64,000 bases of DNA from an uncultured Actinomycetes bacterium (lineage in GTDB: Bacteria; Actinomycetota; Acidimicrobiia; IMCC26256; DASPTH01): the NCBI GenBank assembly GCA_963725775.1, contig CAVRZT010000006.1, positions 14,734-78,733 on the forward strand, given 5' to 3'. Below the pieces are notes generated by a model, which did no database searches, was not told the origin of the DNA, and saw nothing but the letters and a program-made list of their open reading frames with translations. This document shows positions 19,931 through 45,869 of the stretch, piece after piece; within the stretch, counting starts at the first letter, position 1; every line of letters starts with the position of its first letter. The translations under genes were made by a program, and so were the position numbers.

Positions 19931-21584
19931 TCAGGCCGGCGGTTCGGCCGCGTCGTCGACCAGCGGGTCGCCGGTGGCGGGCCCGGAGTCGACGACGGGC
20001 TCGTAGGGCGTCGGCCGCGACCGCGCCGCGTCCTTCGACACGTACGCGCGGTAGTAGCCGCGCACCTCCGGCAGCGACTGCGCGCCGACGAGGACCACGC
20101 CCGCGATCGGGGCGCCCAGGCGGGTGAGCCGCTCGGTGGCGCGCCGCGCGGCCTCGGTGCCGGTCGAACCGGCACGCCCGACGATCACCACGTCGTCGAC
20201 GAGGGGGATCATCGCGCTCATGTCGTCGGTGGCGAGCACCGGTGGCGTGTCGACGACGACGATGTCGGCCATCCTGCGGGCCGCGCCGAGCAGGTCGGCG
20301 CCGTGCGTGAGCAGCTCGCCGGGGTTGCTGATGGGCCGCCCGCTCGGCACGATCCGCACGTTCGGGATGCCGGTGTCGCACACCACTGCGGCGAGGTCCT
20401 TGCCGTCGGCGAGCACCTCCACCACGCCGGGGGCGTCCTTCGGCGCGCCGAGGTAGGTGTCGATCGCCGGGCGCCGCAGGTCGCACGACAGGACGATGAC
20501 CCGCTTGCCCGACTCGCCGAAGGCGGCCGCCAGGTTGGCGACGCAGGTCGACTTGCCCTCGCCCACGCTCGGCGAGACGACCATCACGGCGTGGGCGTGG
20601 TCGTCGGCCGGCCGCGCCTCCGCACCGAGGCGGGCCTGGTCGGCCCGCACGTCACCGGCGGACTGCCGGCTGCGGGGCGCGAGCAGGAGCGTGGACCGGA
20701 GGCTCCGGTACGCCTCCGACGGCGGGGAGTCGGGGGCGTCGTGCACGATCACCGGGCCCTTGCGGAGCTGCGCGGCGGGACATGAACGGGATCTCGGCGA
20801 TCACCGGGAACCCGAACGCCTCCTCGGCCGCCTCGCGGCTGTGCAGGCGGGTGTCGAAGCGGGTCAGCAGCAGTGCCAGCCCGGTGCCGATCAGCAGCCC
20901 GACCGCGCCGGCGATGAGCGCGCGCATGGCACGGCTGGTGCCCGAACCCGATGCGACGGCGACGGCCGATTCCACGCTCTGCAGCCCCGAGGTCGCCGGC
21001 CCCGCGCCCTGCAGGCCGGAGAGCGACTGGCTCTCCGTGCTCAGCGAATCCTGGAGCGTCGCCCGCTGGGCGTCGCCGAGGGGGGTCGGGGGAGCCGCCG
21101 CGATCTGCGCCTGCACGTCCGCGACGCGCTGCTGCTGCTTCTTGACCGCGTCCTCCCACTCGGTCCGGGCCTTGCCGTCGATGCTGGCGATCAGCTGCTT
21201 GGCGTACGCGTCGGCGACCGCGGCGGTCTGGTTCGGGTTCGCGCCGGTCGCCTCGATGGTGAGCGTCCCGCCCACCGCGTCGGCCGTGGCGGTGACCGTC
21301 GGGAGGTCGGCGAGCGGGGTCTTCAGCTCGGCGGAGACCATCCGCGGCACCTCGCCCCGCGTGACGAGGATCGCCATCTGGTCGAGCGACGGGATACCGG
21401 TGGTCTGGCCACCGCCCGATGCGGCACCGACCGACAGCAGCGTCTGCGACGCGGTGTAGTCGGTCGAGCTCGCCGGGACGACGACGAGGGCGAGCACGAC
21501 GCCGACGACACCGCACGCAGCGATGACCCACCACCACTGTCGCAGCGCTCTCAGATACTGGATTGGTTCCACGCGCCGCTCCAC
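19931..21584 (-). CDS. polysaccharide co-polymerase / BY-type tyrosine autokinase (Wzc-like), one frame break near 20770
   Basis: Wzz-like N-terminal domain with 2 TM segments (ORF 20652..21584). Kinase Walker A SPSVGEGKST, A' VLSCDLRRP, B IVVVDTPP and a GYYRAY tail (ORF 19931..20752). Confidence 0.8.
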
Positions 21585-23501
21585 TCCGCTGCGGCGAGGT
21601 CGATGACGTCGTCGGCGGTTCCTGAGGTCGAGTTGGCGAGCGCGACCATGGAGCGCGCCACAGTGTCGTCCTGCCTCTCGGCAGCACCGACGAGGTCGGC
21701 GAGACTGCCGTCGAGAAGGTTACCCGGTACGAGAACCGGCTCGAGACGAACGATCGATTCGTGGGCCGTCGGCTCGCAGACCTCGTCCGGCGAGGAGAGC
21801 TCCTCCTCCAGCTTCTCACCCGGGCGCGTCCCCACGACCTCGATGGGGATCTCGGTGGACACGGCGTAGCCGGACAGCCGGATCATCCGCTCGGCGAGCT
21901 CGTAGATCCGCACCGGCTGGCCCATCTCGAGCATGAACACCTCTCCCCCTTCGGCGAACGTGGCCGCCTGGAGGACGAGCTGCACGGCTTCCTCGATGCT
22001 CATGAAGTACCGGGTCATGTCCGGATGGGTGACCGTGACCGGGCCACCGGCCGCGATCTGACGCTCGAAGGTCGGGATCACGCTGCCCCGGCTGCCGAGG
22101 ACGTTGCCGAACCGCACCGCGCACCGGCGCCCCGCCGGCCGCGAGCCGCGCAGCACGATCTGCTCGCCGAGCCACTTCGACGCGCCCATCACGCTCGACG
22201 GCCGGACGGCCTTGTCCGTGGAGATGAACACCATCAGCTCCGTACCCACGGCCTCGGCCGCGGCGACGAGGTGCGCCGTGCCGACGACGTTCGTCTCGAT
22301 CGCCTGGCACGGGTAGTCCTCGAGCACGGGCACGTGCTTGAGCGCGGCGGCGTGGAACAGCACCTCCGGCCGGTGCTGCTCGAAGACCCGCATGAGCGGC
22401 AGGAGAGAGCGGATGTCGCACAGCACGGAGTCGACCGGGCCGTCGACGCCGGCAGCGGCGTCGTGGAGGTGGGTCTCGTCGTTGTCGACGATCGCAAGCG
22501 ACGCGGGGTCGAACGACGAGATCTGCCGAGCGATCTCCGCGCCGATCGAACCGCCGCCGCCGGTGATCATCACCCGCTTGCCCGCGAGGAGGCGGCGCAC
22601 CTCCTCGTAGTCGGTCTTCACCTGCTGGCGGCCGAGGAGGTCCTCGATGTTGACGTTGCGGACGTCGCGCAGCGACACGCGCCCTCTGATCATCTCGCTC
22701 AGCGGCGGCATGACCTGCACGGGCACGTCGGCGGCCTCCGGCGGCCGCGGCGACCCGGCGCACGAGGTCGCTGCCGGCCGAGGGGATCGCGAGGAGGACC
22801 CGGTGGACGGCGAGCTGCGGGCACAGGTCGGCGAGGGCGTCGATCCCGCCCTCGACCGGCACTCCGAGCAGCGCGTGACCCTGCTTGCGCGGGTCGTCGT
22901 CGAAGACCGCGACCGGGATCATCCCCGCCGACGGCGTCCGCAGCATCTCGCGCACGATCGAGGCGCCGGCCTCGCCGGCACCGACGACCGCCACGCGCAT
23001 CCCCGCGGTGGTGGTGACATCGGCCTGCTTGCGCACCGCGAAGAGCCGCGACTGGAACCGGATCCCGCCCACGAGGAGCATCGTCAGCACCGCACCCATC
23101 ACGACCACCGAGAGCGGGACGCGACTGCGGTCGACCACGAGGTACACGGGCACGAGCACCGCCAGCGCCACCGCGTCGGCGAGCAGCACCTGACGCGCCT
23201 CGACCACGCTGGCGTGGCGCCACATCTGGCGGTAGAGCCCCCACGTCGAGTTGGAGACGAGGTGCACGACCAGCGCGATCGGTAGGAAGGCCGCGAACCG
23301 CGACCAGTACTGCGCCGGGACCTGGCCGTCGAAGCGCAGGAGGAGGACCGCGAGGTACGCGACGCCGACGAGCAGGGCGTCGAGCAGCACCAACGGCAGG
23401 TCGGTGCGCACCCTGCTCACGGTCGTGACGGTGCGCTGCAGACGCTTCCGGATCGCGCCGGACTCGCTTTCGGCCGCCCCGGATTCCCGCTGCCAGCCCA
23501 T
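21551..23501 (-). CDS. membrane-anchored UDP-GlcNAc 4,6-dehydratase (CapD/PglF/WbpM family), one frame break near 22735
   Basis: N-terminal 4-TM plus Rossmann part in ORF 21816..23501. Catalytic part with ITGGGGSIG and STDKAVRPSSVMGASK in ORF 21551..22726. GGGAGG sits 6 nt upstream of ATG 23501. Confidence 0.85.
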
Positions 23502-23716: not shown

Positions 23717-24562
23717 TCAGTACCCGGCCAGGACCCCGAGCTTGCGGCCGTACTCGAGCGAGCGGCCGTAGAGCCACAGGCCGAGCGGGTACACGACGAT
23801 GAGGAACGCCACGAGCATCAGCACGGACAGGGCCGGCGAGGGACCGCTGATCGATCCGCCGTCGGCCATGAGCAGCTTGCGGACCGCGGTGAGCACGTAC
23901 GTCATGGGGAGGCAGTAGGCGAGCCACCGCAGGAACTCGGGGAGCAGCGACACCGGGAAGGCGACACCCGAGAGCACGACCATGCCGAGCTGGTAGAGCG
24001 ACAGCACCGGGTCGGCGCGCTTCGACAGGACCTTCACGCTCGCCGCGAGTACGCCGACGGCGTGCGCGGACGCGACGCCGAGCGCGATGATGAGGATCGC
24101 GAACGGCAGCTGCGTGTAGACGATCTGCGCGCCGAGCGCCAAGCCGATGAGCGCGATCACGAGCGTGGTCGCGACGGTGCGGAAGATCGGCCACACGACC
24201 ATGCCGAACGACAGCCATCGCCAGCTCACCGGTTCGACGAGCAGGGTCTCGAAGGTGCCGTTGCCGAGCAGGAAGTCGAGCTGGTTGCTGAACGCCGAGA
24301 GCGCGCCGTTCATCATCGTCGAGACCACGAAGCCGAGGAAGACGAACGTGTAGTAGTCGCCGCCGACGTTCTGACCGGAGTCGACGAGCTGCGCGACGAA
24401 GTAGTAGATGACGGGCTGCGACAGCAGCGAGACCACGGTCATCACGAGCGCGAGCGGGTAGGCCAGCGCCTCCTGGTAGCCCATCCAGACGAACACCGCG
24501 AGCACGCGCAGCCCTCGCCTCACCGGCACGCGCGCGGACGCGATCGAGGTCGCGATCGACAT
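23717..24562 (-). CDS. ABC-2 type transporter permease
   Basis: Intact 281 aa with six hydrophobic spans. Lies immediately downstream of the ATPase gene. Confidence 0.85.
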   Translation of the reverse strand: MSIATSIASARVPVRRGLRVLAVFVWMGYQEALAYPLALVMTVVSLLSQPVIYYFVAQLVDSGQNVGGDYYTFVFLGFVVSTMMNGALSAFSNQLDFLLGNGTFETLLVEPVSWRWLSFGMVVWPIFRTVATTLVIALIGLALGAQIVYTQLPFAILIIALGVASAHAVGVLAASVKVLSKRADPVLSLYQLGMVVLSGVAFPVSLLPEFLRWLAYCLPMTYVLTAVRKLLMADGGSISGPSPALSVLMLVAFLIVVYPLGLWLYGRSLEYGRKLGVLAGY

Positions 24563-24564
24563 CG

Positions 24565-25643
24565 TCAGCGACGATCCGAGACGAGCTTCGCCAACAGGTC
24601 GCGCAACGGCATCTTCGCCTCCGTCACCGACACGATGTCACCGACGAGCGGCCCGAGGTGCACGAGGAGCGTGCCGGGGTCGTGCTCACTGGCGACGACC
24701 ACCCGCTTGTCCTCGACCGCCTCGACGTCGACGCCGTCGAGCTCGGTCAGCGCCCGCGCGCCCCCGCCGCAGCCGACTCGTCGCAGAACTGCACGACCAG
24801 TCGGGGCAGCTCCCACAGATTGCGGAGCGAGTCGAGGTGGCCCCAGTGCACCAGTTGGCCGCGATCGAGGAACATCACGTTGTCGCGCAGTGCGTCGATC
24901 TCTTCCAGGCGGTGCGAGCTCAGGAGCACCGCGATGCGCAACTCGTAGGTGAGTCGTTGGATCAGGCTGAGCAACTGGTGCGCGCCGATCGGGTCGACGG
25001 TACCGGTCGGCTCGTCGAGGATCAGCACGCGCGGGCGGTGGAGCAACGCGCGTGCGAGCAGCAGGCGCGCGCGCATCCCGGTGGACATGGCGTGACACGA
25101 GTAGTTGCGCGCGTGCGCAAGGCCGACCATCTCGAGCGTCTCGTCGATGCGCTTCTCGAGCTTCGGCGAGCCGAGCCCCTGGAGACGGCCGTGGAACCAC
25201 AGATTCTGATACGAGGTGTGGCGCAGGAACAGCGTCTGCGAGTCGGCGGGCATCCACCCGACCAGGCCGCGCACGCGTCGCGAGTCGGTGGTCGCGTCGA
25301 GACCCATCACGGTCGCGGTGCCCGACGACGGCGTCGTGAGTCCCATGAGGATGCGGAAGAGCGTCGACTTGCCCGCGCCGTTCGGACCGACGACCGCGCA
25401 CACCTCGCCCTCGCGCACCGACATCGACACGCCGGCGAGCGCCTGCACCGGGTGGTCGATCGCCGACTTCAGCAGGAACCGCATCCATCGGCCCGACGGC
25501 TCGTAGACCTTGGTCAGCGAGTCGACGATGATCACCGGTTCGACGGCGCCGGAACCCACGTTCGTGTCCACGTCACCGCCCGTGGCCTGACTCGGGGATT
25601 CGGTCCGACCGGTCAGGCCGATCGCGCTGGACATCCGCCTCAC
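24565..25643 (-). CDS. ABC transporter ATP-binding protein with C-terminal extension (one frame break near 24765)
   Basis: Walker A GPNGAGKST, signature MSTGMRARL, Walker B VLILDEPT (ORF 24747..25643). The tail continues in ORF 24565..25488. The break lies in a G5/C5 run. Confidence 0.85.
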
Positions 25644-26353: not shown

Positions 26354-27417
26354 TCAGAACAGCTCGACGTCGCCGAGGTGCAGCTGCCAGTCCGCCGGGT
26401 CGGCGCCCGGCGGGGACCCGTCGAGCACCCGCTGCACGAGGGTCGGGCCCTGGCCGGGGACCGGCACGCACCCGCCGACGCCCGGGATCCGCACCCGCAC
26501 CAGGTAGTCGGCGCCGCTCGCCGTGACGCGCGGCCCGGCAGAGCCTCGCCACCGTGCGGGCGTCGCCGCCCGGAACGAGCACGTCGACGACCGCCGCCTC
26601 GACGGCCGGACCGCGGCGCCGCACCCGGAAGACCACCGCGCCGTCGGCGAGGGCGGACCCGGAGCGCAGGACGCGGTAGTGCAGCGGCGCGAACCCGTAC
26701 CGCCAGCGCAGGAACTCGGGCGTGCGCCGGGTCGCGAGCCCCACCGGACGGGGGACGGCGTCGAGCAATCCCGACGTGGCGGCGAGGTCGGCGAACACCT
26801 CCGCGGCCGGATCCCCCGCCTCACAGGGCTGTGACCACTTGTCGGCCGCCACCCGCGCCCGTACCAGTCGCACCAGCGGACCGAGCCCGCGGGGTCGAGC
26901 CTCGATGGGGACCCTGCCGACCTCGCGCCAACCCATCTTGAGGTAGCCGGGTCGGCTGCGCTCGTTCGGGGTGTTGAACACGAACGACGTGCCCTCCTCC
27001 CGTAGCTCGTCGAGCGCGCCGAGCGTGAGCCGGGAGAACACCCCTCGGCCCTGGGCGTCGGGGTGGGTCGCGGTGTCGACCGCGCGCACGGCCCCGAACG
27101 TGCGCCCGTCGCCGTCGAACTCCCAGCGCATGAACGTGCGGAAGCCGACGATGCGCCCGCTGTCCGGTTCGACCGCCACCCAGGCCGGCGAGCGGCCGAA
27201 CGGGTTCTCGAAGTGCTTCCACGCGAAGAACGGTGCGTTGGGCTCCTCCGCCGCGCCATCCCATCGTCGCACCGAGCAACGCCAGCACCTCGACGGTGTC
27301 GTCGTCGGTCGCACGCCGCACGAGCAGGTCGGGCAGTGGATCGGGCACACGGACACCTGCGTCGTCGGGCTCGCCGGACGGGACCCGGCGGGTGAGCCCA
27401 CCGGGGACGGTTACCAT
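26354..27417 (-). CDS. GNAT-family N-acetyltransferase (~350 aa type), two frame breaks
   Basis: ATG 27417. The GNAT core VDTATHPDAQGRGVFSRL is in ORF 26226..27401, with ends in two other frames. Breaks at about 27245 and 26535. Confidence 0.7.
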
Positions 27418-28332: not shown

Positions 28333-29505
28333 TCAGCCGCCGAAGAGCGTGAGGCCCTTGCGCCCGGCGACGTCGCGGTAGGTGTCGAGCACCGTCCGCA
28401 CCACGTCGCGCTCGTCGAACTCGGCCCGTGCCTTGGCCCGCCCCGCCGCGCCCATGCGCGCGCGCAGGTCGCCGTCGGCGGCGACGGCGCGCAACGCACG
28501 CGCCAACGCGACCGGATCGTCGACCGGCACGAGCATCCCGGTGACGCCGTCGTCGACGACCTGACGACACCCGCGGATGTCGGTCGCCACCACCGGGAGA
28601 CCCATCGCCGCCGCCTCCATCGCCACGCGGGGGAACCCCTCACGGTGGGAGGGGAGCACGAACACGTCGAACGCCGAGTAGAGGCGGTCGACGTCGTCAC
28701 GCATGCCGAGGAACCGCACGCCGTCGGCCGCCGCCGCCTCGATGAGCGCGGCGGGCAGGCGGTCCGACTTCTCGGGGTCGTCGGGCCCGACCACCGCGAG
28801 GACGACGCCGGGCCCGAGCGACCGCGCCGCCTCGAACAGCTCGGGGTAGCCCTTCTCCGCGACGAGGCGGCCCACGGTGCCCACGACGACGTCGTCGGGC
28901 GCGGCCCCGAGCTCCGCGCGGGCCGCGGCGCGCTCCGACGGCCCCACCCGGTCGGGGTCGAACCGGGCGAGGTCGACGCCGTTGCCGAGCAGCCGGGCGC
29001 GGCGGCGGCGGGTGATGCGCCACCGCCGCGTGAGCTCGAGGTCTTCGGGGTTCTGGAACAGCTCCGCGTCGGAGAACCGGGCCACGACCGCCTCGAGCGC
29101 GTAGACGAGCAGGCGCTTCGACCACGCGTCGTCGTCGGCCGCGTAGAGCCCGTGGACGGTGTTCACCACGACCGGCACGCGGGCGAGGCGCCCGACGACG
29201 CGGCCGTAGAGCCCGGGCTTCGGGTTGTGCGTGTGCAGCACGTCGACGTGCTCGCGCCGAAGCACCTTCCAGAGCTCCCACGCGGCGCGCAGGTCGGCCG
29301 AGACGTGCATGCCCCGCGTCGACGAGGCCAACGCGAGGTGCCGCACCCCGTCCGCCTCCAGCCCGGCGACGTAGGGACCCGGCGCGCTGATGCCGATGGC
29401 GACGCCGCCGAGCTCTTCCACCGCCCGGAGCTGGGGGAACAGCAGGAACCGCAGGCTGCTGTCGACGGTCGTGAGGTGCGCGACCGTCGTCGGGCTGCCG
29501 TTCAC
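28333..29505 (-). CDS. GT4-family glycosyltransferase
   Basis: GTG 29505 (GTGA overlap). Motif PSHREGFPRVAMEAAAMGLPVVATD. This is the intact C-terminal part of ORF 28333..30105. Confidence 0.85.
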   Translation of the reverse strand: MNGSPTTVAHLTTVDSSLRFLLFPQLRAVEELGGVAIGISAPGPYVAGLEADGVRHLALASSTRGMHVSADLRAAWELWKVLRREHVDVLHTHNPKPGLYGRVVGRLARVPVVVNTVHGLYAADDDAWSKRLLVYALEAVVARFSDAELFQNPEDLELTRRWRITRRRRARLLGNGVDLARFDPDRVGPSERAAARAELGAAPDDVVVGTVGRLVAEKGYPELFEAARSLGPGVVLAVVGPDDPEKSDRLPAALIEAAAADGVRFLGMRDDVDRLYSAFDVFVLPSHREGFPRVAMEAAAMGLPVVATDIRGCRQVVDDGVTGMLVPVDDPVALARALRAVAADGDLRARMGAAGRAKARAEFDERDVVRTVLDTYRDVAGRKGLTLFGG

Positions 29506-30215
29506 GGTCGGGGGACCCGCTCGGAGCCGAACCCGAGCAGCTCCGCCGCGTCGACGAGGTCGGGCACCTCCCGGTCCACGTCGCCCGTGCTGACCACGCC
29601 GGCGTGGAGCGACGCCGGCCGCCGGACCCGAACCGTCCGCCAGCCGAGGGCGCGCGGCGCCGAGAAGTCCTTCGCCGGGTTGTCCGCCAGGTACACGTTG
29701 TCGGCCCCGCGGGTGCCGAAGCGCGCCTCGATCAGCTCGAAGGCGCGCGGGTGCGGCTTGGCGAAGCCGGGACCGAACTCCTCGGTGAAGACCACGACCC
29801 CGGCCCAGTCGGCGACGCCGAGCGCCTCGACCTTCGCGCGCTGGCTCGCCAGCGGACCGTCGGTCACCGCGGCCAGCGCCACCCGCCCCCGGAGCCGGTC
29901 CACGAGCGTCACCGCGTCGGGGAGCATGGCGATCACCGGCCGGTGGTTCCGGTAGCACTCGACCATGGCCGCGACCGTCGCGGATGTGGGCTCCATCCCG
30001 ACCCGGCGCAGCGCGGCGTCGAACGCGTCGCCGCGTCCGCCCGCGAGGAAGTGCTCCCAGGCGGCGTCCCCGACGCCCGCGACACCGAGCTCGCCCGCGG
30101 CCCACGCGCCGACCGCGTCGAAGCCGCTGCGGACGTACTCCCGCTCGAGGTAGAGCGTGTCGTCCACGTCGAAGACGACGCAGCGCGGGGCGATCGGCAC
30201 CTCCACGCGGCTCAC
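29502..30215 (-). CDS. HAD-superfamily hydrolase
   Basis: GTG 30215 (GTGA overlap). HAD motif I VVFDVDDTLY and a later ADNPAKD. Confidence 0.8.
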   Translation of the reverse strand: MSRVEVPIAPRCVVFDVDDTLYLEREYVRSGFDAVGAWAAGELGVAGVGDAAWEHFLAGGRGDAFDAALRRVGMEPTSATVAAMVECYRNHRPVIAMLPDAVTLVDRLRGRVALAAVTDGPLASQRAKVEALGVADWAGVVVFTEEFGPGFAKPHPRAFELIEARFGTRGADNVYLADNPAKDFSAPRALGWRTVRVRRPASLHAGVVSTGDVDREVPDLVDAAELLGFGSERVPRP

Positions 30216-31198
30216 AGGCCCGCGTCGACGCGGTCGACGAACACCGCGTCGTCGTAGCGGAGCATGACGACGCCCGCCCGCCACGGCGCCGCCGGTTCGC
30301 TGAGAGGAGCTCCGGTCGTCTCCTCGACCAGCCATTGCGCGAACCGCGCGCCGGCGGCGGCGGCGAGCGGGTAGCCGCCGCCGAACCGGGCGTTGACCTC
30401 GATCACCGCGAGCGTGCCCGACTCCTCCTCGCGGAAGAGCTGGACGTTCAGCGCGCCGAAGGCGTCGGGCAGTCGGTGACCGATCTCGCGGGCCAGGTCC
30501 TCGACGTCGTCGAGGCGCACGGTCACCGCCTTGCTCACCTCACCGCCCCGCACCTCGAGCCGCCGGCGCGGGACCGCCTCGCGCACCCGGCCCGCCCGGT
30601 CGACGTAGACGTCGACCGTGTGCTCGTGCCCGCCCGCCAGCGTCTGGACCAGGTCGTCGCCGCCGCGCGCCGCGACGTCGAGCGCAGCCGCGTCGGCGAC
30701 CAGGGCTACCCCGATCGACGCGCTCCCGCGGCGTGGCTTGACGACCAGTGGGAACGGCCAGTCCCCGGCGGAGCGCGCGACCGCCGCGGCGTCGGCCTGA
30801 CGCACGGTCGGGAAGTCGTTCGCGACGAGCCACTCGTGCGTGTGGACCTTGTCGGACCCGATCGCCACCGCCGCCGGTCCGGACACCGCGACGGTGATGC
30901 CGCGCGCCGCGAACTCGTCGCGATGCGCGGCCAGCACCGGGAGCTCGGTGTCGATGGTCGGGACGACGAGGTGGATCTCCTGCTCCCGGCAGAGGTCGAG
31001 CAGCGCAGGGACGAACTCGTCGCTCGTGCACCGGGGCACGAGGACACCGGCGTCGGCGACCTGGAACGCCGCCGACGCCCGCGACACGTCGGTCGCGACG
31101 ATCCGGCCGTCATGTCCCGTGCGCGCGAGCGCGTCGCGAAAGCAGCCGAGCAGCGCGACCCGGCGCCCCGCCGACGAGAGGAGCACGTTGCAGGTCAC
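30212..31198 (-). CDS. ATP-grasp domain protein (carbamoyl-phosphate-synthase-L-like ligase)
   Basis: Intact 328 aa. Motifs FPLVVKPRRGSASIGV and VIEVNARFGGGYPL. GTGA overlap at both ends. Confidence 0.8.
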   Translation of the reverse strand: MTCNVLLSSAGRRVALLGCFRDALARTGHDGRIVATDVSRASAAFQVADAGVLVPRCTSDEFVPALLDLCREQEIHLVVPTIDTELPVLAAHRDEFAARGITVAVSGPAAVAIGSDKVHTHEWLVANDFPTVRQADAAAVARSAGDWPFPLVVKPRRGSASIGVALVADAAALDVAARGGDDLVQTLAGGHEHTVDVYVDRAGRVREAVPRRRLEVRGGEVSKAVTVRLDDVEDLAREIGHRLPDAFGALNVQLFREEESGTLAVIEVNARFGGGYPLAAAAGARFAQWLVEETTGAPLSEPAAPWRAGVVMLRYDDAVFVDRVDAGL

Positions 31199-31860
31199 GG
31201 GCGCGACCCCTCGTCGGTCGACGGCGCGTCAGCCGGTCCCTCGTCGACACGGAACTCCGGCATCGTCGCGTGGCCTCCGTGGGCGATGCCCTGCGGACGC
31301 ACCATCTGCTGCACCGTGCTGGCGAGGATCCTGACGTCGAGCCGGAGCGTGCGGTGGTCGACGTACCACACGTCGAGCGCGAACTTGTCGTCCCACTCGA
31401 GGTCGTTGCGCCCGTTCACCTGCGCCCAGCCGGTGATGCCGGGCCGCACCTCGAGGCGCCGGGCCTGCGTCGGCGTGTACCGCTCCACGTACCTCACCGG
31501 CAACGGGCGCGGCCCCACCAGGGCCATGTCACCCCGCAGCACGTTGAAGATGGAAGGCAACTCGTCGATGCTGGTCGACCGGAGGAGCGCACCGACCCGG
31601 GTGATGCGCGCCGCATCCGACTCCGGGATGGTCTCCCCGGGTCGCAACCCGCGCATGGTGCGGAACTTGAGGAGCTCGAAGGGCCGACCATCCATCCCGG
31701 CGCGGCGGTCGCGGAAGAGCACGGGTCGACCCATCGTCGCGAGCACCGCGAGCGCCGCCACCGCGAGGACCGGTGCCGCGACGACGACCATCGCGGTGGC
31801 GAGCACGACGTCGACCAGCCGCCGCGACACCTCCCGGAGCCCCGTGACCACCGCATTCAT
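31195..31860 (-). CDS. small PglC/WbaP-C-type undecaprenyl-phosphate sugar phosphotransferase
   Basis: ATG 31860. Single re-entrant helix, then motifs KFRTM and DELPSIFNVLRGDMALVGPRP. Confidence 0.9.
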   Translation of the reverse strand: MNAVVTGLREVSRRLVDVVLATAMVVVAAPVLAVAALAVLATMGRPVLFRDRRAGMDGRPFELLKFRTMRGLRPGETIPESDAARITRVGALLRSTSIDELPSIFNVLRGDMALVGPRPLPVRYVERYTPTQARRLEVRPGITGWAQVNGRNDLEWDDKFALDVWYVDHRTLRLDVRILASTVQQMVRPQGIAHGGHATMPEFRVDEGPADAPSTDEGSRP

Positions 31861-32045
31861 CGACTGGCGTCCTCGTTCGACATCGTGACCCGACGCAACG
31901 CGCCCGTGCCCCCGTACCCGCGTGCGAGCCGCCCATGGTAGAGGGCTCCCCGACCGGTGCCGTCCGTCCGTGCACCCGCGCCTCGGTACGCTGCGTCGGC
32001 CGGACACCGGTCCGCGAACCACGCCGCCGGTCGCGGGAGGTGGGC

Positions 32046-32966
32046 ATGCACGCGATCGCGGACGTCATCAGCGAGCCGGCGTTCCTCGGTGCGCTGGCGG
32101 TCTCGCTGGGGGGATCGCTGCTGGTCCTGGTCCTGGTCCTGGTCCCGGGCGGCGTGCGCACCCGTGCCCTCCCGGTCGGCGGCCTGCTGATCGCCGCCGC
32201 CACCGCTGTTGGCCTCGTCGTGTCCGACGCCCTGGCCGGCGGCACGCGCTGGCTGCTCGCCGGCTCGCTCGTCCTGGCGCTGGGCGGGAGCGTCCGCCGG
32301 GCGCTCCCCGCGGTCGGGATCGTCGTGCTCGCCGCCGGCGCGGTCGGCATCTCGTACGCCGTCGCGGTGGTCGACGGCAGCACCTGGGTGCGGGTGCTGG
32401 TGATCGGCGCCACGACCGCCGGCGCGCTGGGCACGGCCCGGGTCGACCGGACGTACGCCCGCTTCGGGCTCGGCCCGTGGCTGCTGGCGGTGACGGCGGC
32501 CGGGGTGTTCGTGTGCGTCCCCGACACCGAGCAGGCGATCCCGCTCTTCGCCGCCTCGCTGGGGCTCCTGGTCGCGCTCCGCCCTCCGGCGAGCCTGCGC
32601 CTCGGGAGCGCCGGCGCCGCGGTCGGGATCGGTCTCGTGCTCTGGGCCGCGGCCGTGGGCGGCACCGGACGGCCGGGTTCGGTGGTCGGGGCGGCCGGCT
32701 GCCTGGGCATGCTCGTGGTCGAACCCGTGGTCGAGGCGCTCCTCGGCGCCCGGCGCGTCGCACCTCCCGGGGCAGCACCGGCCCGCCCCGACGGACCGGA
32801 CGGCACCCGGACGCTCACCGTTGGCGTCGTGCACGTGGTGGTGGTGCTGTTCTGCGCCCGCGTCGCCGGGTTCCGGTCGTCTGCGGCGGTGGCCGGGGTG
32901 CTGGTCACGCTGGCGCTGGTGGCGGCGGGCGTCCTCCTCGCCGTTGCCTGGCGACCACGACGCTGA
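32046..32966 (+). CDS. hypothetical polytopic membrane protein
   Basis: ATG 32046 in ORF 31935..32966. Ala/Gly/Leu/Val-rich with about 8-9 hydrophobic spans and high GC3. No family recognised. Confidence 0.5.
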   Translation: MHAIADVISEPAFLGALAVSLGGSLLVLVLVLVPGGVRTRALPVGGLLIAAATAVGLVVSDALAGGTRWLLAGSLVLALGGSVRRALPAVGIVVLAAGAVGISYAVAVVDGSTWVRVLVIGATTAGALGTARVDRTYARFGLGPWLLAVTAAGVFVCVPDTEQAIPLFAASLGLLVALRPPASLRLGSAGAAVGIGLVLWAAAVGGTGRPGSVVGAAGCLGMLVVEPVVEALLGARRVAPPGAAPARPDGPDGTRTLTVGVVHVVVVLFCARVAGFRSSAAVAGVLVTLALVAAGVLLAVAWRPRR

Positions 32967-35650: not shown

Positions 35651-36613
35651 ATGCGAATCCTCGTCACCGGCGGTGCCGGCTACATCGGCTCGCACCTCGT
35701 CGACTCGCTCTGCGAAGCGGGTCACCAGGTCAGCGTGCTCGACAACCTCACCACCGGACGGGTGGCCAACCTGAATGGCCGCCTCGGAGAGGTCCGGTTC
35801 GTGAACGGTTCCATCCTCGATGCCCCCCTGGTGGAGCGGGAGGTGGAGAGCGTCGAGATGGTCTTCCACCTCGCCGCCGCGGTCGGGGTGCGGCACATCG
35901 TCGACTCCCCCCTCGAGTCCCTGCTGGTGAACACCCGGGGCACCGAGAACGTGCTGAGCTCCTGCTTCAGGTACTGGCGGAAGGTCGTGGTCGCCTCGAC
36001 GTCCGAGGTCTACGGCAAGACCTCCAAGGTGCCGATGTGCGAGGACGACGACCGGGTCCTCGGCCCGACGACGGTCCACCGCTGGTCGTACTCGACCGCC
36101 AAGGCGATCGACGAGCACCTGGCGTTCTCGTACGCCGCCCACCAGCTCCCCGTCGTCATCGTGCGGTACTTCAACTCGTACGGCCCGCGCCTCGACGAGC
36201 GCGGGTACGGCTCGGTGGTCGCCAACTTCCTCCGGCAGGCGCTGAACGGCGAGCCGCTCACGGTGCACGGCGACGGCCTCCAGAGCCGGTGCTTCACCTA
36301 CGTCTCCGACACGGTGCGCGGCACCGCGCTCGCCGGCTTCACGCCCGAGGCCGAGGGCAAGGTGATCAACCTCGGGAACCCCCACGAGACGACCATCCTC
36401 GAGCTCGCCGAGAAGATCCGCGACGCGGTCGGCTCGCGCTCGGGGATCCAGACGACCGCCTACGAGGAGTACTACGGACCCGGCTTCGAGGACACCCGGC
36501 GCCGGGTGCCCGACATCACCCGGGCCGGGGAGATCCTCGACTGGCGGCCGGAGATCCAGCTCGAGGAGGGCCTCGGGCGGACCATCGAATGGTGGGCGAA
36601 GACCAAGACCTAG
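35651..36613 (+). CDS. NAD-dependent epimerase/dehydratase (UDP-glucuronate decarboxylase-like)
   Basis: ATG 35651 in ORF 35141..36613. Motifs VTGGAGYIGSHL and YSTAKAIDE. Confidence 0.85.
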   Translation: MRILVTGGAGYIGSHLVDSLCEAGHQVSVLDNLTTGRVANLNGRLGEVRFVNGSILDAPLVEREVESVEMVFHLAAAVGVRHIVDSPLESLLVNTRGTENVLSSCFRYWRKVVVASTSEVYGKTSKVPMCEDDDRVLGPTTVHRWSYSTAKAIDEHLAFSYAAHQLPVVIVRYFNSYGPRLDERGYGSVVANFLRQALNGEPLTVHGDGLQSRCFTYVSDTVRGTALAGFTPEAEGKVINLGNPHETTILELAEKIRDAVGSRSGIQTTAYEEYYGPGFEDTRRRVPDITRAGEILDWRPEIQLEEGLGRTIEWWAKTKT

Positions 36614-36699
36614 CCGTTCCCGCTCCTCAAGGCGGTACGCGCGCCGGCCGAACACCCGTGGGGAGACCTGGGAGCGGGATGCAGTGAGGAGACACGACC

Positions 36700-37923
36700 A
36701 TGGAGACGAGTGACGCGCCGCGGTGCCGTTCGTGCGGAGCACCGGACCTGCGCACGTTCCTCGACCTGGGCATGACACCCCTTGCCGACGCCCTCGTGCC
36801 GCCGGGCCCGCCCGACGCGCCCGAGCCGCGCTTCCCGCTCGAGGTCGCGTTCTGCCCGTCGTGCACCCTGGTCCAGATCCTCGAAGAGGTACCGCCCGAG
36901 CAGCTGTTCGTCGACAACTACCTGTACTTCTCGTCGTTCTCCGACCACCTGCTCGAGCACTCGCGCCGCCACGCGCTCGACCTCGTCGAACGTCGCTGCC
37001 TGTCCGGTGACAGCCTGGTCGTCGAGCTCGCGAGCAACGACGGGTACCTGCTGCGCAACTTCGTCGACCAGGGCGTGCCGGTGCTCGGCATCGACCCCGC
37101 TCCCGGGCAGGCCGAGGCGGCCGAGCAGGTGGGCGTCCCGACGCTCACGGAGTTCTTCGGCACCGACCTCGCCCGCCGGTTGGTCGACGAGGGCCGCCGC
37201 GCCGACGTCATCATCGCCAACAACGTGATGGCGCACGTGCCCGACCTCAACGGCTTCGTGGAGGGGATGTCACTCCTGCTGGCCGACGACGGGATCATCA
37301 CGGTCGAGAACCCCTACGTGCGCGACCTGATCGAGCACGCCGAGTTCGACACGATCTACCACGAGCACTTCTGCTACTTCTCGTGCACCGCGGTCGACGC
37401 CCTCGTCCGCCGACACGGCATGTACCTCAATCACGTCGACTACTTCCCCGACCTGCACGGCGGGACCCTCCGGTGGTGGATCGGCAAGCACGAGGACGTC
37501 AGTGACGACGCCCGCCGCTACCTCGACGACGAGGCCGCGACCGGCATGCGCGAGTTCGAGCACTACCGCGACTTCGCCGAGCGCGTCACCCGGATCCAGC
37601 GGTCGCTGGTCGGGCTCCTCCAGCAGCTGCGGGCCGACGGCAAGCGGATCGCCGCGTACGGCGCGGCCGCGAAGGGCAGCACGCTCGTGAACAGCTCGGG
37701 GATCGGCACCGACCTGGTCGAGTTCGTGGTCGACCGGAACGTGCACAAGCAGGGGCTGCTGATGCCCGGCGTGCACATCCCCATCCGCGCCCCGGAGGCC
37801 CTCATCGAGGAGCAGCCCGACTACCTGCTGCTCCTCGCGTGGAACTTCAGGGACGAGATCGTCGCCCAGCAGGACGAGTACGCCCGCCGCGGCGGCCGGT
37901 TCATCGTCCCCGTCCCGGAACCG
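36700..37923 (+). CDS. NDP-hexose C-methyltransferase-like protein (TylCIII type); no stop before the next module
   Basis: Zn-ribbon CRSCG..CPSC, SAM motif VVELASNDGY, and a C-terminal AYGAAAKGSTL domain ending GGRFIVPVPEPVV. The frame then reads straight on to 38298. Confidence 0.8.
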
Positions 37924-39136
37924 GTGGTGCTGTGGAGCGCGTCGGCGGAGCAACGGCCGGTGGACCCGTCGCTGGTGTGCCCGGCGTGCGGCCACGCCGG
38001 TCTCGACGTGTTCTACGAGCAGGCCAGCATCCCGGCCCACAGCACCCTGCTGCTGCCGAGCCGCGAGCGCGGTCTCGTACCCGCAGGGCACGCTGCGCCT
38101 CGGGTTCTGCACGAGCTGCGGCTTCATCACGAACACCGCGTTCGACGTCGGGCTCAACGAGTACTCGCGCCTGATCGAGGAGACGCAGGGGTACTCGCCG
38201 TACTTCCGGAACTGGTTGCGCGGCCTCGCCGACGAGTTCGTCGAGCGTTTCGACCTGCACGACAAGGAGGTACTCGAGATCGGATGCGGCAAGGGTGAGT
38301 TCCTCTCCTTCGTGTGCGAGGCCGGCCACGACCGCGGCCTCGGGATCGACCCCTCGTACATCGAGGGTCGGCTCGAGTCACCCGCGCTCGAGCGGATGAC
38401 CTTCCTCAACGAGCTCTACTCGGAGGCCCACGAGCCTCTGGTCGGTGACGCCGTCGTGTGCCGCCACACGCTGGAGCACATCGGTCCGGTCGCTGAGTTC
38501 GTGCGGACCGTGCGCCGGTCGATCGGCGACCGACGCGACGTCGTCGTGTTCTTCGAACTGCCGGAGACGCTCCGGGTCCTGCGAGAGTGCGCGTTCTGGG
38601 ACATCTACTACGAGCACTGCTCCTACTTCACCCCCGGCTCGCTCGCCCGGCTGTTCCGCCGCGAGGGCTTCGACGTCGTCGACGTCGAGCTCGATTACGG
38701 CGACCAGTACATCGTGCTGTACGCGCGGACCGCCTCCGGCGACGACCGCGTGCTGCCGCTCGAGGACGACCTCGCCGAGACCGCGGCGCTCGTCGACCAG
38801 TTCCGCGTCGAGGCTCCCCGGCGGCAGGCCGAGCTGGCAAAGCTCGCGACGGCCGCGCACGCGTCGGGGCGGCGCCCGGTCATCTGGGGCGCAGGTTCCA
38901 AGGGCGTGTCGTGGCTCACCACGCTGGGCCTCACCGAGGAGATCGAGTACGCCGTCGACGTCGACCCCCACAAGTGGGGCATGTTCATGGCGAGCACGGG
39001 CCAGGAGATCGTGGGGCCCGACGCCCTGCGCGACTACCGGCCCGGGGTGGTGTTCGTGATGAACCCGATCTACGTCGACGAGATCCGGGGCGACCTCGCG
39101 GCGCGCGGGCTGCAGCCCGAGCTCGTTCCCGTCTGA
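37924..39136 (+). CDS. Zn-ribbon class I SAM methyltransferase, paralog of 1967..3166 (one frame break near 38068)
   Basis: In-frame GTG at 37924/37927. Motifs CPACG..CTSCG, VLEIGCGKGEF and IWGAGSKG. N-terminal 48 aa are in the frame of 36700 and the rest is in ORF 38216..39136. Confidence 0.75.
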
Positions 39137-39150
39137 ACGCCCACCGACCG

Positions 39151-40448: not shown

Positions 40449-40460
40449 GCCCGTCGCCGG

Positions 40461-44741: not shown

Positions 44742-45869
44742 TCAGGGACGTGCGGTCTCCAGCACCCCCGCCGCCACTCGATCGACGTCGGCGTCGCTCA
44801 TGGCCGAGCCGCTCGGGAGGCAGACCCCGGTGCGGAAGATGGTCTCGGCGACCGCGCCACCCCGGACGGGGGCGTCCCGGAACAACGGCTGGCAGTGCAT
44901 CGGCTTCCAGGCGGGGCGGGCCTCGATGTCGAGGGTGTCCAGGTGGCGGCAGATCGCACCCGACGACGCGCCGAACTCCTCGGCGTCGACCGTGGCCACG
45001 GTGAGCCAGTTGGTGGGTCGGCCGCGGGGGTCGTCCGGCATGAACCCGATCCCGGGCGTCGATCCCAGCCGCTCGCGGTAGCGGCGGTTGATCTCCCGCC
45101 GCCGCTCGATCCGGGCCGGGAGCGCGCGGAGCTGGGCCCGGCCCACCGCAGCGAGCAGGTTGCTCATCCGGTAGTTGTACCCGGTCTCGCTGTGCTCGTA
45201 GTGGAGCGCGTCGTCGCGGGCCTGCGTGCTCAGGAACCGAGCGCGAGCGATGAGCGCGGGGTCGTGCGCCACCAGCATGCCGCCGCCGCTCGTGGTCATG
45301 ATCTTGTTCCCGTTGAACGAGAACACCCCGAGCGCGCCGAACGACCCGGCGGCGCGGTCGCGGTAGGTCGCGCCCAGCGCCTCGGCCGCGTCCTCGATCA
45401 CGGGGACCTCGTACCGTGCGCAGCACTCGAGGAGGGCGTCCCAGTCCGCGCACTGGCCGTAGAGGTCGACCGCCAGCACCGCGGCCGGGAGCCGGCCCGC
45501 ATTCGCCCGCTCGCGCAGCTCCTCCTCGACCAGGTTCGGGTCGAGGTTCCACGTCGCCTCGTCACTGTCGACGAACACCGGTCGCGCACCCACGTACCCC
45601 ACCGCGTTCGCAGTCGCCACGAAGGTGAGCGTGGGAACCAGCACGTCGTCGCCCGGACCCACATCCGTCAGCAACAGCGCGAGGTGCAGCGCCGCGGTGC
45701 CGCTGGAGAGCGCCGCGGCCGACGGCACGCCGACGAACGCCGCGAGCTCCTCCTCGAACCCGTCCACGTGCGGGCCGAGCGGCGCGATCCAGTTCGAGTC
45801 GAACGCGTCGAGCAGGAACGACCGTTCCTCGTCGGCGACGTGCGGAGGGGAGAGGAAGAGCCGGGCCAC
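44742..45869 (-). CDS. DegT/DnrJ/EryC1/StrS-family PLP-dependent sugar aminotransferase
   Basis: Intact 375 aa. Motifs SSGTAALHLAL and FSFNGNKIMTTSGGGML (PLP lysine). Confidence 0.9.
   Translation of the reverse strand: MARLFLSPPHVADEERSFLLDAFDSNWIAPLGPHVDGFEEELAAFVGVPSAAALSSGTAALHLALLLTDVGPGDDVLVPTLTFVATANAVGYVGARPVFVDSDEATWNLDPNLVEEELRERANAGRLPAAVLAVDLYGQCADWDALLECCARYEVPVIEDAAEALGATYRDRAAGSFGALGVFSFNGNKIMTTSGGGMLVAHDPALIARARFLSTQARDDALHYEHSETGYNYRMSNLLAAVGRAQLRALPARIERRREINRRYRERLGSTPGIGFMPDDPRGRPTNWLTVATVDAEEFGASSGAICRHLDTLDIEARPAWKPMHCQPLFRDAPVRGGAVAETIFRTGVCLPSGSAMSDADVDRVAAGVLETARP

Follow-up and report, generated by a model that had tools for sequence, protein, structure and literature searches.

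In the Campylobacter route to undecaprenyl-diphospho-diNAcBac (PglF, PglE, PglD and PglC), the 4-amino group of the sugar is acylated by the acetyl-CoA-dependent PglD. In C. jejuni HS:2, the C-terminal ATP-grasp amidoligase of Cj1438 and the HAD phosphatase Cj1435 carry out a ligation to a phosphorylated partner, which is followed by dephosphorylation. To our knowledge, among the N-acylating ATP-grasp enzymes that stand alone, only Pyl of Bacillus cereus has been defined biochemically. According to the 2014 work, as it is summarized in PMC11626204 and PMC8987622, Pyl joins 2-oxoglutarate to UDP-4-amino-FucNAc. PglB2 of Neisseria meningitidis, in which a phosphoglycosyl transferase and an ATP-grasp domain form one protein, makes glyceramido-acetamido-trideoxyhexose, GATDH (PMC11130364, PMC6959607); according to the reviews, pglB2 was inserted together with an ‘ORF8’. 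The Cj1438 amidoligase and Cj1435 are named in C. jejuni papers, where the amidation of glucuronic acid with ethanolamine or serinol is described (e.g. PMC11800397), and the glucosyl-3-phosphoglycerate synthase and its phosphatase, as outlined in PMC3240985, are a further precedent for ligation with subsequent dephosphorylation.

The window analysed here, 64,000 nucleotides from an uncultured Actinomycetes bacterium, is high in GC and looks like a locus for a polysaccharide of the actinobacterial cell envelope, with an ABC-2 exporter. Four minus-strand genes, all in one direction, were identified between 28333 and 31860 by a GC3-based gene call and the ORF list. They code for a PglC-like small monotopic phosphoglycosyl transferase (31195..31860, 221 aa, the first gene), an ATP-grasp carboxylate-amine ligase (30212..31198, 328 aa), a HAD-IA phosphatase translationally coupled to it (29502..30215, 237 aa) and a GT4 glycosyltransferase (28333..29505, 390 aa). 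Since the minus-strand tetranucleotide GTGA occurs at all three junctions (31195-31198, 30212-30215 and 29502-29505), each stop codon overlaps the next GTG start. The operon with these overlaps, as described in the initial annotation, was thus borne out by the gene calls, the Pfam assignments and the sequence at the junctions. A Shine-Dalgarno motif, GAGGA, lies 9 nt 5' of the ATG of the transferase, and all four genes are intact with a strong GC3 coding signal. The same order with 4-nt overlaps was also found in Acidimicrobiia and other Actinomycetes MAGs; given this recurrence, the arrangement exceeds chance. Divergently from the transferase gene, a polytopic membrane protein is encoded on the plus strand (32040..32966), for which searches of Pfam and NCBIfam gave no match; its orthologues (41-83% identical) keep the same divergent position in the related loci L003, L004, L006 and L008.

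The transferase matched Bac_transf in Pfam (E 3e-59), and its top PDB match was the C. concisus PglC (8G1N/8E37, E 2e-47, residues 9-203 aligned). In the ATP-grasp protein, PylC-like_N and ATP-grasp_3/ATPgrasp_Ter were recognized (E 5e-25 and 3e-12). It aligned in full with the NCBIfam model PRK12767.1-4 (NF009405) and scored 316 bits, which is under the curated cut-off of 390; PRK12767, ‘carbamoyl phosphate synthase-like protein’, is the same family, to which no function is assigned in spite of this misleading name. In the PDB, 2PN1 (E 2e-37) was the sole specific relative, a structural genomics entry from Exiguobacterium sibiricum labelled ‘carbamoylphosphate synthase large subunit’. It shares family and fold with the window protein, the AF2 model of which (pLDDT 95.5) gave a TM score of 0.85-0.90 against it in Foldseek. 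The window protein keeps the invariant ATP-grasp residues K117, K154, E192, N269 and R271, and also E267, which varies only rarely in the family. The HAD protein (Pfam Hydrolase/HAD_2; Hydrolase, E 1e-14) carries the DxDxT motif as D16-V-D-D-T20, read from the sequence; its nearest NCBIfam models were TIGR02253 (E 2e-21), pyrimidine nucleotidase and phosphoglycolate phosphatase, every score being under the cut-off. In the GT4 protein, Glycos_transf_1 and Glyco_trans_4 (Glyco_trans_4_4) were found (E 7e-37). Orthologues of the GT4 protein, 68-81% identical, occupy the same place after the HAD gene in L003, L008 and L014, and a GT4 gene also follows the HAD gene in the B. cereus-group cassette L095. 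The GT4 protein of the window probably extends the acylated, lipid-linked sugar by a second one.

The genes which would supply the amino sugar were located elsewhere in the window, as had been noted before. The minus-strand gene at 44742..45869 codes for a PglE-like UDP-4-keto-6-deoxy-HexNAc aminotransferase of the DegT family, the sole DegT match in the six-frame translation; its top PDB match was C. jejuni PglE (1O61/4ZTC, E 6e-89), it scored 370 bits against the LegC family of NCBIfam (cut-off 420), and it shares 60% identity with the DegT protein encoded in the ATP-grasp operon of L002 and L011. The membrane-anchored, PglF-like UDP-GlcNAc 4,6-dehydratase (21551..23501, minus strand; top PDB match C. 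jejuni PglF 5BJU, E 7e-67) is likewise real, has no second copy of its kind in the window and is 50% identical to the PglF of ATP-grasp cassettes elsewhere, but it is split over two frames, Polysacc_synt_2 (E 9e-102) lying in the frame of 21551-22726 and CoA_binding_3 in that of 21816-23501. Compared with the in-frame orthologue of L006 there is one extra base, inserted near 22739; this single-base frameshift is probably an assembly error. The aminotransferase lies about 13 kb and the dehydratase about 6 kb from the operon.

Thus PglF-, PglE- and PglC-like proteins of the Campylobacter route are all present in the window, whereas PglD is not, and the ATP-grasp and HAD proteins would stand in that step. 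The initial annotation had proposed PglB2 as precedent, which agrees with the literature. The likeness is one of architecture, with an ATP-grasp in place of the acetyltransferase domain of PglB, and the PglB2 product is the reducing-end sugar on undecaprenyl phosphate, as is proposed here (PMC11130364, PMC6959607). The fused arrangement is matched exactly by two relatives of the window protein (P0414 and P0333), in both of which a HAD follows. In the window, however, transferase and ATP-grasp are separate genes with a 4-nt overlap, and a HAD is coupled to them, while for Neisseria a phosphatase is not described in the literature covered; besides, the Neisseria system is an O-linked protein glycosylation of a Gram-negative bacterium and the window apparently serves a cell-envelope polysaccharide of an actinobacterium. 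B. cereus Pyl, biochemically the nearer precedent, had been missed. As far as it is described in PMC11626204, Pyl is also a stand-alone ATP-grasp, encoded in a polysaccharide operon together with a small monotopic phosphoglycosyl transferase and an aminotransferase of the DegT family; it uses ATP to N-acylate a UDP-4-amino-6-deoxy-HexNAc, and the acid is not acetate, as would be the case here. On the other hand, the Pyl acid is unphosphorylated, no HAD is reported for the pathway in these descriptions, and the gene order in B. cereus ATCC 14579 is apparently different (PMC9912610, PMC4595770).

In order to follow the neighbourhood of the family, 80 metagenomic loci with ATP-grasp proteins 35-60% identical to that of the window were surveyed. 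A HAD gene lay directly downstream in 47/65 informative loci, a phosphoglycosyl transferase within 3 kb in 45/71 and a DegT gene within 3 kb in 27/56, while a PglD-type gene was present within 6 kb in only 1/35. In other phyla, orthologues of the window HAD, 44-60% identical, lie directly downstream of the ATP-grasp gene. Co-directional cassettes of transferase, ATP-grasp, HAD, DegT and PglF were found on many metagenome contigs as well as in Planctomycetota, Verrucomicrobiota and Bacillota. Since members of the family from many phyla share operons with genes like pglC, pglE and pglF but hardly ever with one of the PglD type, N-acylation of a UDP-4-amino sugar is the best reading, and the ATP-grasp protein is proposed as an N-acyl ligase for UDP-4-amino-4,6-dideoxy-HexNAc. 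The suggested link between the HAD and the ATP-grasp also proved real, both from the survey and from a genuine ATP-grasp::HAD::PglD-like fusion (P0478). The latter comes from an organism of 40% GC, and the other two frames contain 53 and 83 stops; it sits in a PglF-DegT-[fusion]-transferase-GT4 operon.

Most likely, the operon starts a glycan with a bacillosamine-type amino sugar bearing a non-acetate acid on its 4-amino group. The chemical steps are read from the domain identities, the translational coupling, the conserved neighbourhood and the fusions. The PglF-like dehydratase and the PglE-like aminotransferase would convert UDP-GlcNAc to UDP-2-acetamido-4-amino-2,4,6-trideoxyhexose. The ATP-grasp would then form the acyl phosphate of a carboxylic acid and join the acid to the 4-amino group. 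This acid would bear a phosphate ester, which the HAD would cleave either after the ligation, on the UDP-sugar adduct, or immediately before it, on the free acid. The PglC-like transferase would transfer the acylated sugar phosphate to undecaprenyl phosphate and the GT4 would attach the next sugar. That the ATP-grasp N-acylates the 4-amino sugar is quite probable, and the action of the HAD on a phosphate of the acyl donor or adduct is slightly favoured. The acid would most likely be 3-phosphoglycerate, and the sugar would then carry a glyceramido group like GATDH of Neisseria; this is a first guess, the second being a phospho-amino acid, and a glyceroyl group specifically is rather doubtful. 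The whole pathway, as the initiating module of a surface-glycan pathway, falls a little short of an even chance. The distance of the supply genes, the frameshift of the dehydratase and the NCBIfam scores of the ATP-grasp and HAD proteins under the curated cut-offs count against it, and the unphosphorylated acid used by Pyl counts against a phosphorylated one.

A PglD/NeuD-type acetyltransferase had been reported as missing, and in the six-frame translation of the whole window no PglD_N-type acetyltransferase was found. Two other acetyltransferases had been overlooked, however. The hexapeptide acyltransferase at 13725-14330 has a PglD match limited to the repeat region and reached 65 bits against the cut-off of 160.8 for NeuD/PglB/VioB. 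The other is an Eis-like GNAT (Acetyltransf_9, E 1e-11), encoded on the minus strand at about 26357..27330, roughly 1 kb downstream of the operon, with two frameshifts; the intact 329-aa orthologue from L003 aligns to three different window frames. This gene lies beside the operon also in L003, L004 and L006, adjoins the transferase in L015, and may code for a capping N-acetyltransferase. Among the relatives there are genuine fusions of the ATP-grasp to an N-acetyltransferase domain of the PglD type, which may come first or second (P0122, P0167, P0169, P0201, P0235, P0515), and to FemAB-like aminoacyl transferases (P0126, P0204, P0268); one fusion to a WecA-type transferase and a tandem ATP-grasp protein were also seen. 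Because of these PglD-like and FemAB-like fusions and the GNAT about 1 kb away, the idea that the ATP-grasp simply replaces the acetyltransferase, as first suggested, is too simple, although non-acetyl N-acylation is still the best reading.

Such fusions and the nearby GNAT suit a hydroxy acid no better than an amino acid as the donor. In the same pathway, the ATP-grasp could join an amino acid or phospho-amino acid (e.g. O-phospho-L-serine) to N4, the HAD would strip the side-chain phosphate and the neighbouring GNAT would cap the new alpha-amine with acetate; elsewhere a fused PglD-like, a FemAB-like or a formyltransferase enzyme would serve as cap, the product being a 4-(N-acetyl-aminoacyl)amino sugar. 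The tandem protein, the syntenic GNAT, a formyltransferase gene directly before the ATP-grasp-HAD pair in Ensifer and a distant homologue on an E. coli plasmid with DegT and GNAT alongside fit this, and the triple fusion requires three consecutive activities on one substrate. However, most cassettes have no nearby cap (FemAB-like 4/35 and GNAT9 1/35, besides the single PglD), the HAD is unlike phosphoserine phosphatase by NCBIfam, and the use of phosphoserine would need a rationale, free serine being abundant. Since enzymes of the PglD/NeuD family can also O-acetylate, the PglD-like fusions are no proof of an amine. We consider an amino-acid donor unlikely.

The HAD may also be only accessory to the ATP-grasp step, as 18/65 loci lack it directly downstream, it was found in 0/6 loci of the clade with WecA-type transferases, and no alignment column or residue parted the HAD-linked from the HAD-less ATP-grasps when both groups were aligned. 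A Pyl-like ligase could then use an unphosphorylated acid such as 2-oxoglutarate, as B. cereus Pyl does with no phosphatase step in the accounts given in PMC11626204 and PMC8987622. The HAD would be unrelated to the acyl group: it would hydrolyse the UMP released by the transferase, thereby pulling the reversible reaction, or have another housekeeping role. Its weak NCBIfam matches do include the pyrimidine 5'-nucleotidases YjjG, TIGR01993 and PRK09449. In P0478, however, the HAD is fused to the ATP-grasp and not to the transferase, and it is the ATP-grasp that it follows in most loci; the WecA-type transferases release UMP too, yet have no HAD. Moreover, the B. cereus-group homologue P0319, the cassette of which reads PglF-DegT-transferase-ATP-grasp-HAD-GT4, shares no more than 31% identity with the window protein. 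This explanation seems improbable.

It is very unlikely that the PglF-like and GNAT genes are true pseudogenes of a decayed pathway, the original product of which is no longer made. The insertion in the dehydratase, the two frame changes in the GNAT gene and an apparently 5'-truncated G6PD gene in the window would agree with decay, but the four operon genes are intact, and in L003, L004 and L006 the same genes, including those for ATP-grasp, HAD and GT4, are frameshifted at other positions. Frameshifts that differ in position between close relatives are typical of MAGs assembled from long reads with indel errors.

Chemistry of the Cj1438/Cj1435 type, in which the ATP-grasp would amidate a glycan uronic-acid carboxylate with the phosphate of ethanolamine or of serinol and the HAD would dephosphorylate the amide, is extremely improbable. 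The same pair of enzymes in a surface-polysaccharide locus, with the same order of ligation and dephosphorylation, speaks for it, as do the UDP-sugar 6-dehydrogenase genes that a few relatives (L011, L102, L104) have within 10 kb. In C. jejuni, however, the sugar (glucuronate) provides the carboxylate and the amine is the partner with the phosphate, whereas here the conserved partners, which are the transferase, DegT and PglF and neither a dehydrogenase nor a PLP decarboxylase, indicate an amine on the sugar, the phosphoglycosyl transferase fusions point to a nucleotide-sugar amine substrate, the cassette has no uronate-forming or amine-phosphate-forming gene, and no UDP-sugar 6-dehydrogenase was found among the scanned window genes.

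N-acylation of UDP-4-amino sugars by ATP-grasp enzymes is already known from PglB2 and B. cereus Pyl. The HAD-coupled ATP-grasp cassette, on the other hand, appears to be undescribed, and the same genes, as yet uncharacterised as a set, are found together in six or more phyla of bacteria.

The four genes which the initial annotation had placed in one overlapping series were recovered on the minus strand with every coordinate correct, by the GC3-based gene caller and by the mechanical ORF list alike. They encode a PglC-like transferase (31195-31860, 221 aa; Pfam Bac_transf, E 3e-59), an ATP-grasp ligase (30212-31198, 328 aa; Pfam PylC-like_N plus ATP-grasp_3/ATPgrasp_Ter), a HAD hydrolase (29502-30215, 237 aa; Pfam Hydrolase, DxDxT motif at residues 16-20) and a GT4 glycosyltransferase (28333-29505, 390 aa; assigned by Pfam). 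All three junctions read GTGA on the coding strand, the stop codon being shared with the next GTG start. The transferase is of the small monotopic type and its top solved relative is the Campylobacter concisus PglC (8G1N, E 2e-47). The G+C content of the window is 70-76%. No promoter or terminator was found between 28000 and 32300, a scan which is uninformative since about zero would be expected at 74% GC. Divergent from the transferase gene, a polytopic membrane protein without Pfam or NCBIfam match is encoded on the plus strand (32040-32966), and its position is kept in the relatives from Actinomycetes and Acidimicrobiia (41-83% identity).

The sugar-supply genes named in the initial annotation proved to be real. 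The top solved relative of the PglF-type 4,6-dehydratase (21551-23501) is C. jejuni PglF (5BJU, E 7e-67) and that of the PglE-type aminotransferase of the DegT family (44742-45869) is C. jejuni PglE (1O61, E 6e-89); each is the sole member of its family within the window. In other bacteria the transferase, ATP-grasp, HAD, DegT and PglF genes occur together as a cassette. Since the window DegT and PglF share 60% and 50% identity with these cassette copies, they are regarded as the partners of the operon, despite distances from it of 13 kb and 6 kb, respectively. The absence of a PglD-type acetyltransferase likewise held, with zero PglD_N matches in any frame of the window. A hexapeptide gene (13725-14330) is matched by the PglD-family models in its repeat region only, and resembles the Vat/CatB-type enzymes more. 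A GNAT gene (Acetyltransf_9, Eis-like; 26357-27330, minus strand) had been overlooked. It lies approx. 1 kb past the GT4 gene. All close relatives show it in synteny with the operon, and in one of the homologous loci, L015, it adjoins the transferase.

The gene neighbourhood is the decisive evidence for the predicted function of the operon. In a Planctomycetota genome the transferase, ATP-grasp, HAD, DegT and PglF genes are all co-directional, in another lineage the order is GT4::transferase, ATP-grasp, DegT, PglF, and in Acidimicrobiia the transferase, ATP-grasp, HAD and GT4 genes follow each other with 4-nt overlaps, an arrangement identical to that of the window. The cassette of the B. cereus group consists of PglF, DegT, transferase, ATP-grasp, HAD and GT4, its ATP-grasp protein (P0319) being 31% identical to that of the window (E 4e-54), and annotated records with the module include a Priestia plasmid, Roseibium, Ensifer and Segatella copri. 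The neighbours of the ATP-grasp gene were also classed with phmmer seeds in 80 further metagenome loci, in which the ATP-grasp protein was 35-60% identical. The HAD gene stood directly 3' of it in 47 of the 65 informative loci. Of 71 loci, 45 had a phosphoglycosyl transferase within 3 kb, and 27 of 56 had a DegT gene within the same distance. Within 6 kb, 10 of 35 loci had a PglF-like gene and one of 35 a PglD-type gene. Besides these genes, uncharacterised NTP_transf_5 (PF14907) nucleotidyltransferase genes lie beside the cassette in Deltaproteobacteria, Planctomycetota and another lineage (L001, L002 and L011), and APH/choline-kinase-like genes lie near it in L002 and L011; neither has a counterpart in the window. 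A distant ATP-grasp homologue (27% identical) is carried by an O-antigen-like block on an E. coli IncR plasmid (L097; NZ_LR890610.1, 23.7-32.6 kb), together with RfbA, dTDP-glucose dehydratase, DegT, GNAT, a PLP enzyme and a glycosyltransferase. An attempt to tie this homologue to a known O-antigen structure showed its gene in only four complete E. coli genomes out of 5426, in each case on a small plasmid.

The cluster representatives of the ATP-grasp family and the later matches were also surveyed for fusions. Two monotopic transferase::ATP-grasp fusions (P0414, P0333) are each followed by a HAD gene and flanked by DegT, and in P0267 a WecA-type polytopic transferase is fused to the ATP-grasp domain. 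Further partners are a PglD-type acetyltransferase domain, in both orders (P0122, P0167, P0169, P0201, P0235, P0515), a FemAB-like aminoacyl transferase (P0126, P0204, P0268) and a second ATP-grasp domain in tandem (P0127). The 761-aa P0478 unites ATP-grasp, HAD and a PglD-like domain, and its gene lies between PglF and DegT on one side and transferase and GT4 on the other. This is a real open reading frame, since it comes from an organism of 40% GC and the two other frames contain 53 and 83 stops. Taken together, the fusions indicate that the ATP-grasp enzyme acts on the nucleotide sugar used by the initiating transferase and that the HAD protein is its functional partner. They also show that the ATP-grasp enzyme does not always displace the acetyltransferase, since in some lineages the two work together, and the earlier proposal of a replacement is in this respect an oversimplification.

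At the protein level the window ATP-grasp (PF21360, E 5e-25; PF15632, E 1e-13; PF02655, E 3e-12) shows the PylC-like_N then ATP-grasp_3/ATPgrasp_Ter order of the 2PN1/PRK12767-type ligases. The NCBIfam PRK12767 'carbamoyl phosphate synthase-like' models align with it over their full length, below their cut-offs (top model NF009405, 316 bits against a cut-off of 390, aligned over 2-316 of 320). Its only specific solved relative is the structural genomics entry 2PN1 (E 2e-37), to which the model of pLDDT 95 was superposed by Foldseek with a TM of 0.85-0.90; past 2PN1 the PDB matches were solely generic ATP-grasp folds (biotin carboxylases, PurK, PylC), and thus gave no pointer to the acid. Since the matches to D-Ala-D-Ala ligase, RimK, LysX and PylC were marginal (E 1e-8 to 1e-4), the protein does not group with the peptide ligases unrelated to sugars, a grouping which the initial annotation had considered contrary to its proposal. 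Across 42 diverse homologues K117, K154, E192, N269, R271 and G274-G275 are invariant and E267 is nearly so (90% or more), and all the conserved catalytic and Mg/ATP-binding residues are present in the window protein, as is the E[ILV]N[APS]RFGGG motif. An R-rich loop, PRxRLEVRxGEVSKG, is conserved in the family. An exhaustive search of a library clustered at 50% identity gave 621 representatives of this large family at E <= 1e-30. Its conservation is unusual, as members from Actinomycetota, Planctomycetota, Deltaproteobacteria and Acidimicrobiia share 55-61% identity. The HAD protein aligns end to end with Pfam Hydrolase (2-191 of 191) and carries the subfamily IA motifs, namely D16-V-D-D-T20, the T in AAVTDGP, the K in FAKPHP and the D in LADNPAKD; in the PDB it is related to archaeal proteins that are themselves uncharacterised and to designed enzymes derived from these.

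Several known systems resemble this arrangement. The Campylobacter diNAcBac module has its PglF-, PglE- and PglC-like enzymes represented in the window, while PglD (PglD_N plus left-handed beta-helix) is absent. The Neisseria precedent put forward in the initial annotation was borne out, as the ATP-grasp/phosphoglycosyl-transferase PglB2 is credited with GATDH, the glyceramido sugar; PglB2 and PglB are mutually exclusive, and an 'ORF8' came in by the same insertion as PglB2 (PMC11130364, PMC6959607). In PglB2 the ATP-grasp domain is C-terminal to the transferase in one protein, an architecture shared by P0414 and P0333 but not by the window, where separate genes overlap by GTGA. The setting is shared: PglF-like and PglE-like genes, but no PglD_N-type gene, occur in the window, and in relatives they lie in one operon. 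A closer biochemical precedent, not cited in the initial annotation, is B. cereus Pyl, an ATP-grasp enzyme which ligates 2-oxoglutarate to a UDP-4-amino sugar (cited in PMC11626204 and PMC8987622). The window enzyme is similarly stand-alone with the transferase adjacent, and DegT lies in the locus, and adjacent in relatives. The cluster members of P0319 gave no link to Pyl or to strain ATCC 14579, and the locus tags in PMC9912610 and PMC4595770 suggest a gene order in ATCC 14579 unlike that of the cassette.

In the proposed mechanism a UDP-4-amino sugar would be made by the PglF-like and PglE-like enzymes and N-acylated by the ATP-grasp enzyme with a non-acetyl acid, the HAD protein would remove the phosphate of that acid, the PglC-like transferase would put the product on undecaprenyl phosphate and the GT4 would extend the lipid-linked sugar. 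The N-acylation by the ATP-grasp enzyme is the step we consider probable; that the HAD protein removes a phosphate belonging to the acid is slightly favoured. A precedent for ligating a phosphorylated partner which is then dephosphorylated is glucosyl-3-phosphoglycerate synthase with its phosphatase (PMC3240985). A glyceroyl group derived from 3-phosphoglycerate is a tentative assignment. It is favoured since 3-phosphoglycerate is universal and free glycerate is not, since no natural product other than glyceramido is known for a PglB2-type enzyme, and since the PglB2-like fusions of the family are followed by HAD. The broader idea that the ATP-grasp/HAD pair would constitute a general N-glyceroyl amino-sugar route, in which 3-phosphoglycerate is ligated and then dephosphorylated as the chemistry of PglB2, with 'ORF8' being the HAD, and would have been spread as a mobile five-gene cassette over at least six phyla, with the B. 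cereus group and gut Bacteroidota among the carriers, is possible but doubtful.

The acyl group may instead be an amino acid or phospho-amino acid subsequently capped by the GNAT protein; the PglD, FemAB and formyltransferase associations of the ATP-grasp family speak for this reading, which we consider rather unlikely. We give a similarly low probability to a Pyl-like reaction with an unphosphorylated acid, the HAD protein having another job, although cassettes without HAD exist and no residue separates the HAD-linked from the HAD-less ligases: in no alignment column did conservation reach 85% in one set while staying at or below 40% in the other, and the clade associated with WecA-type transferases showed four mild differences and no more. 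The last of these alternatives is amidation of a uronate. In C. jejuni the ATP-grasp amidoligase Cj1438 reportedly works with the phosphatase Cj1435, a phosphorylated partner being ligated and then dephosphorylated, and the window ligase is likewise paired with a HAD phosphatase. Both proteins are named in C. jejuni papers (e.g. PMC11800397). Amidation of this type is unlikely here, as neither a UDP-sugar 6-dehydrogenase nor an amine-phosphate-forming PLP enzyme was found in the cassette or among the Pfam-scanned window genes, the sole DegT of the window being PglE-like.

Two genes of the locus are interrupted in the assembled sequence. The PglF-like dehydratase is divided between two frames by one extra base near 22739 (minus strand) in a CCGG run, compared with the in-frame orthologue of L006, its N-terminal CoA_binding_3 and C-terminal Polysacc_synt_2 parts being otherwise intact, and three window frames of the GNAT gene (26357-27330) align to the intact 329-aa orthologue of L003. 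Since in the closest relatives (75% identical; L003 and the 'uncultured Actinomycetes' MAGs L004 and L006) the frame breaks fall at other positions in the same genes, those of the window are probably assembly indel errors, and decay of the pathway in this organism, with true pseudogenes, is improbable. Further errors of this kind probably affect 48417-50753 (minus strand), where the N-terminal domain of G6PD is missing except for its final 21 residues and 6-phosphogluconate dehydrogenase is matched in fragments; the genes that follow at 51703-54839 encode PGI and a member of the pyridine nucleotide-disulphide oxidoreductase family. An apparent ATP-grasp::HAD fusion, P0046 (562 aa, L003 10001-11689), was rejected as a frameshift artefact of a high-GC MAG: ATP-grasp residues 1-270 lie in frame 2, 271-328 in frame 3, and the HAD again in frame 2. 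It serves as a warning for Rosetta-stone inference from such MAGs, where wrong-frame read-through may proceed without stop codons.

The operon is part of a glycan locus of large size, extending from about 13.7 to 47.5 kb. Its other genes encode several glycosyltransferases of families GT2 and GT4, a pair of ABC-2 exporter proteins (23717-25571), a low-molecular-weight phosphotyrosine phosphatase, a ParA/BY-kinase-like ATPase, a PIG-L deacetylase and, convergent on the operon, a polysaccharide deacetylase. The locus also has a CDP-glucose pathway with two C-methyltransferases. This second nucleotide-sugar pathway (35651-42286) comprises the glucose-1-phosphate cytidylyltransferase RfbF, which scores above its curated cut-off, a pair of genes resembling NDP-hexose C-methyltransferases, of which one has the zinc-binding Methyltransf_13 domain, and two SDR epimerase/dehydratases; the gene content points to a C-methylated CDP-deoxyhexose as a constituent of the same glycan. 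The minus-strand genes at 13725-17374 encode the hexapeptide acyltransferase, a NeuB-family synthase, a GT2 and a non-hydrolysing UDP-GlcNAc 2-epimerase (WecB, above cut-off). They are no canonical nonulosonic-acid set; the synthase is short, divergent and without SAF domain (168 bits against the NeuB cut-off of 400). Beside the PglE-like gene, a large plus-strand protein (45982-47538) is matched weakly, below the cut-off, by NAGPA (phosphodiester glycosidase; E 1e-4) and may act in the processing of a phosphodiester-linked glycan.

Systems in which an ATP-grasp enzyme N-acylates a UDP-4-amino sugar for an initiating transferase are already known. A HAD partner that looks obligate and so broad an occurrence of the cassette appear undescribed, and no paper describing the HAD-coupled cassette was found in the literature search. 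The window is an actinobacterial member of this group with a split cassette. The result is a functional prediction, open to direct testing, for a protein pair that is very widespread and lacks an assigned function; it would be no surprise to a specialist. A defined ATP-grasp/HAD step would give function to proteins annotated as 'ATP-grasp domain-containing protein', 'carbamoyl-phosphate synthase large subunit' and 'HAD family hydrolase', and would add a new donor sugar to the panels for deorphanising small phosphoglycosyl transferases (PMC11626204). It may also explain how glyceramido or aminoacyl-amido sugars arise; the synthesis of the N-glyceroyl pseudaminic acid of Tannerella was genetically unresolved according to a 2017 paper (PMC5378307). 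Which sugar comes first in a bacterial surface glycan, and which N-acyl group it bears, influences antigenicity, recognition by phages and by the immune system, and the specificity of the later enzymes.
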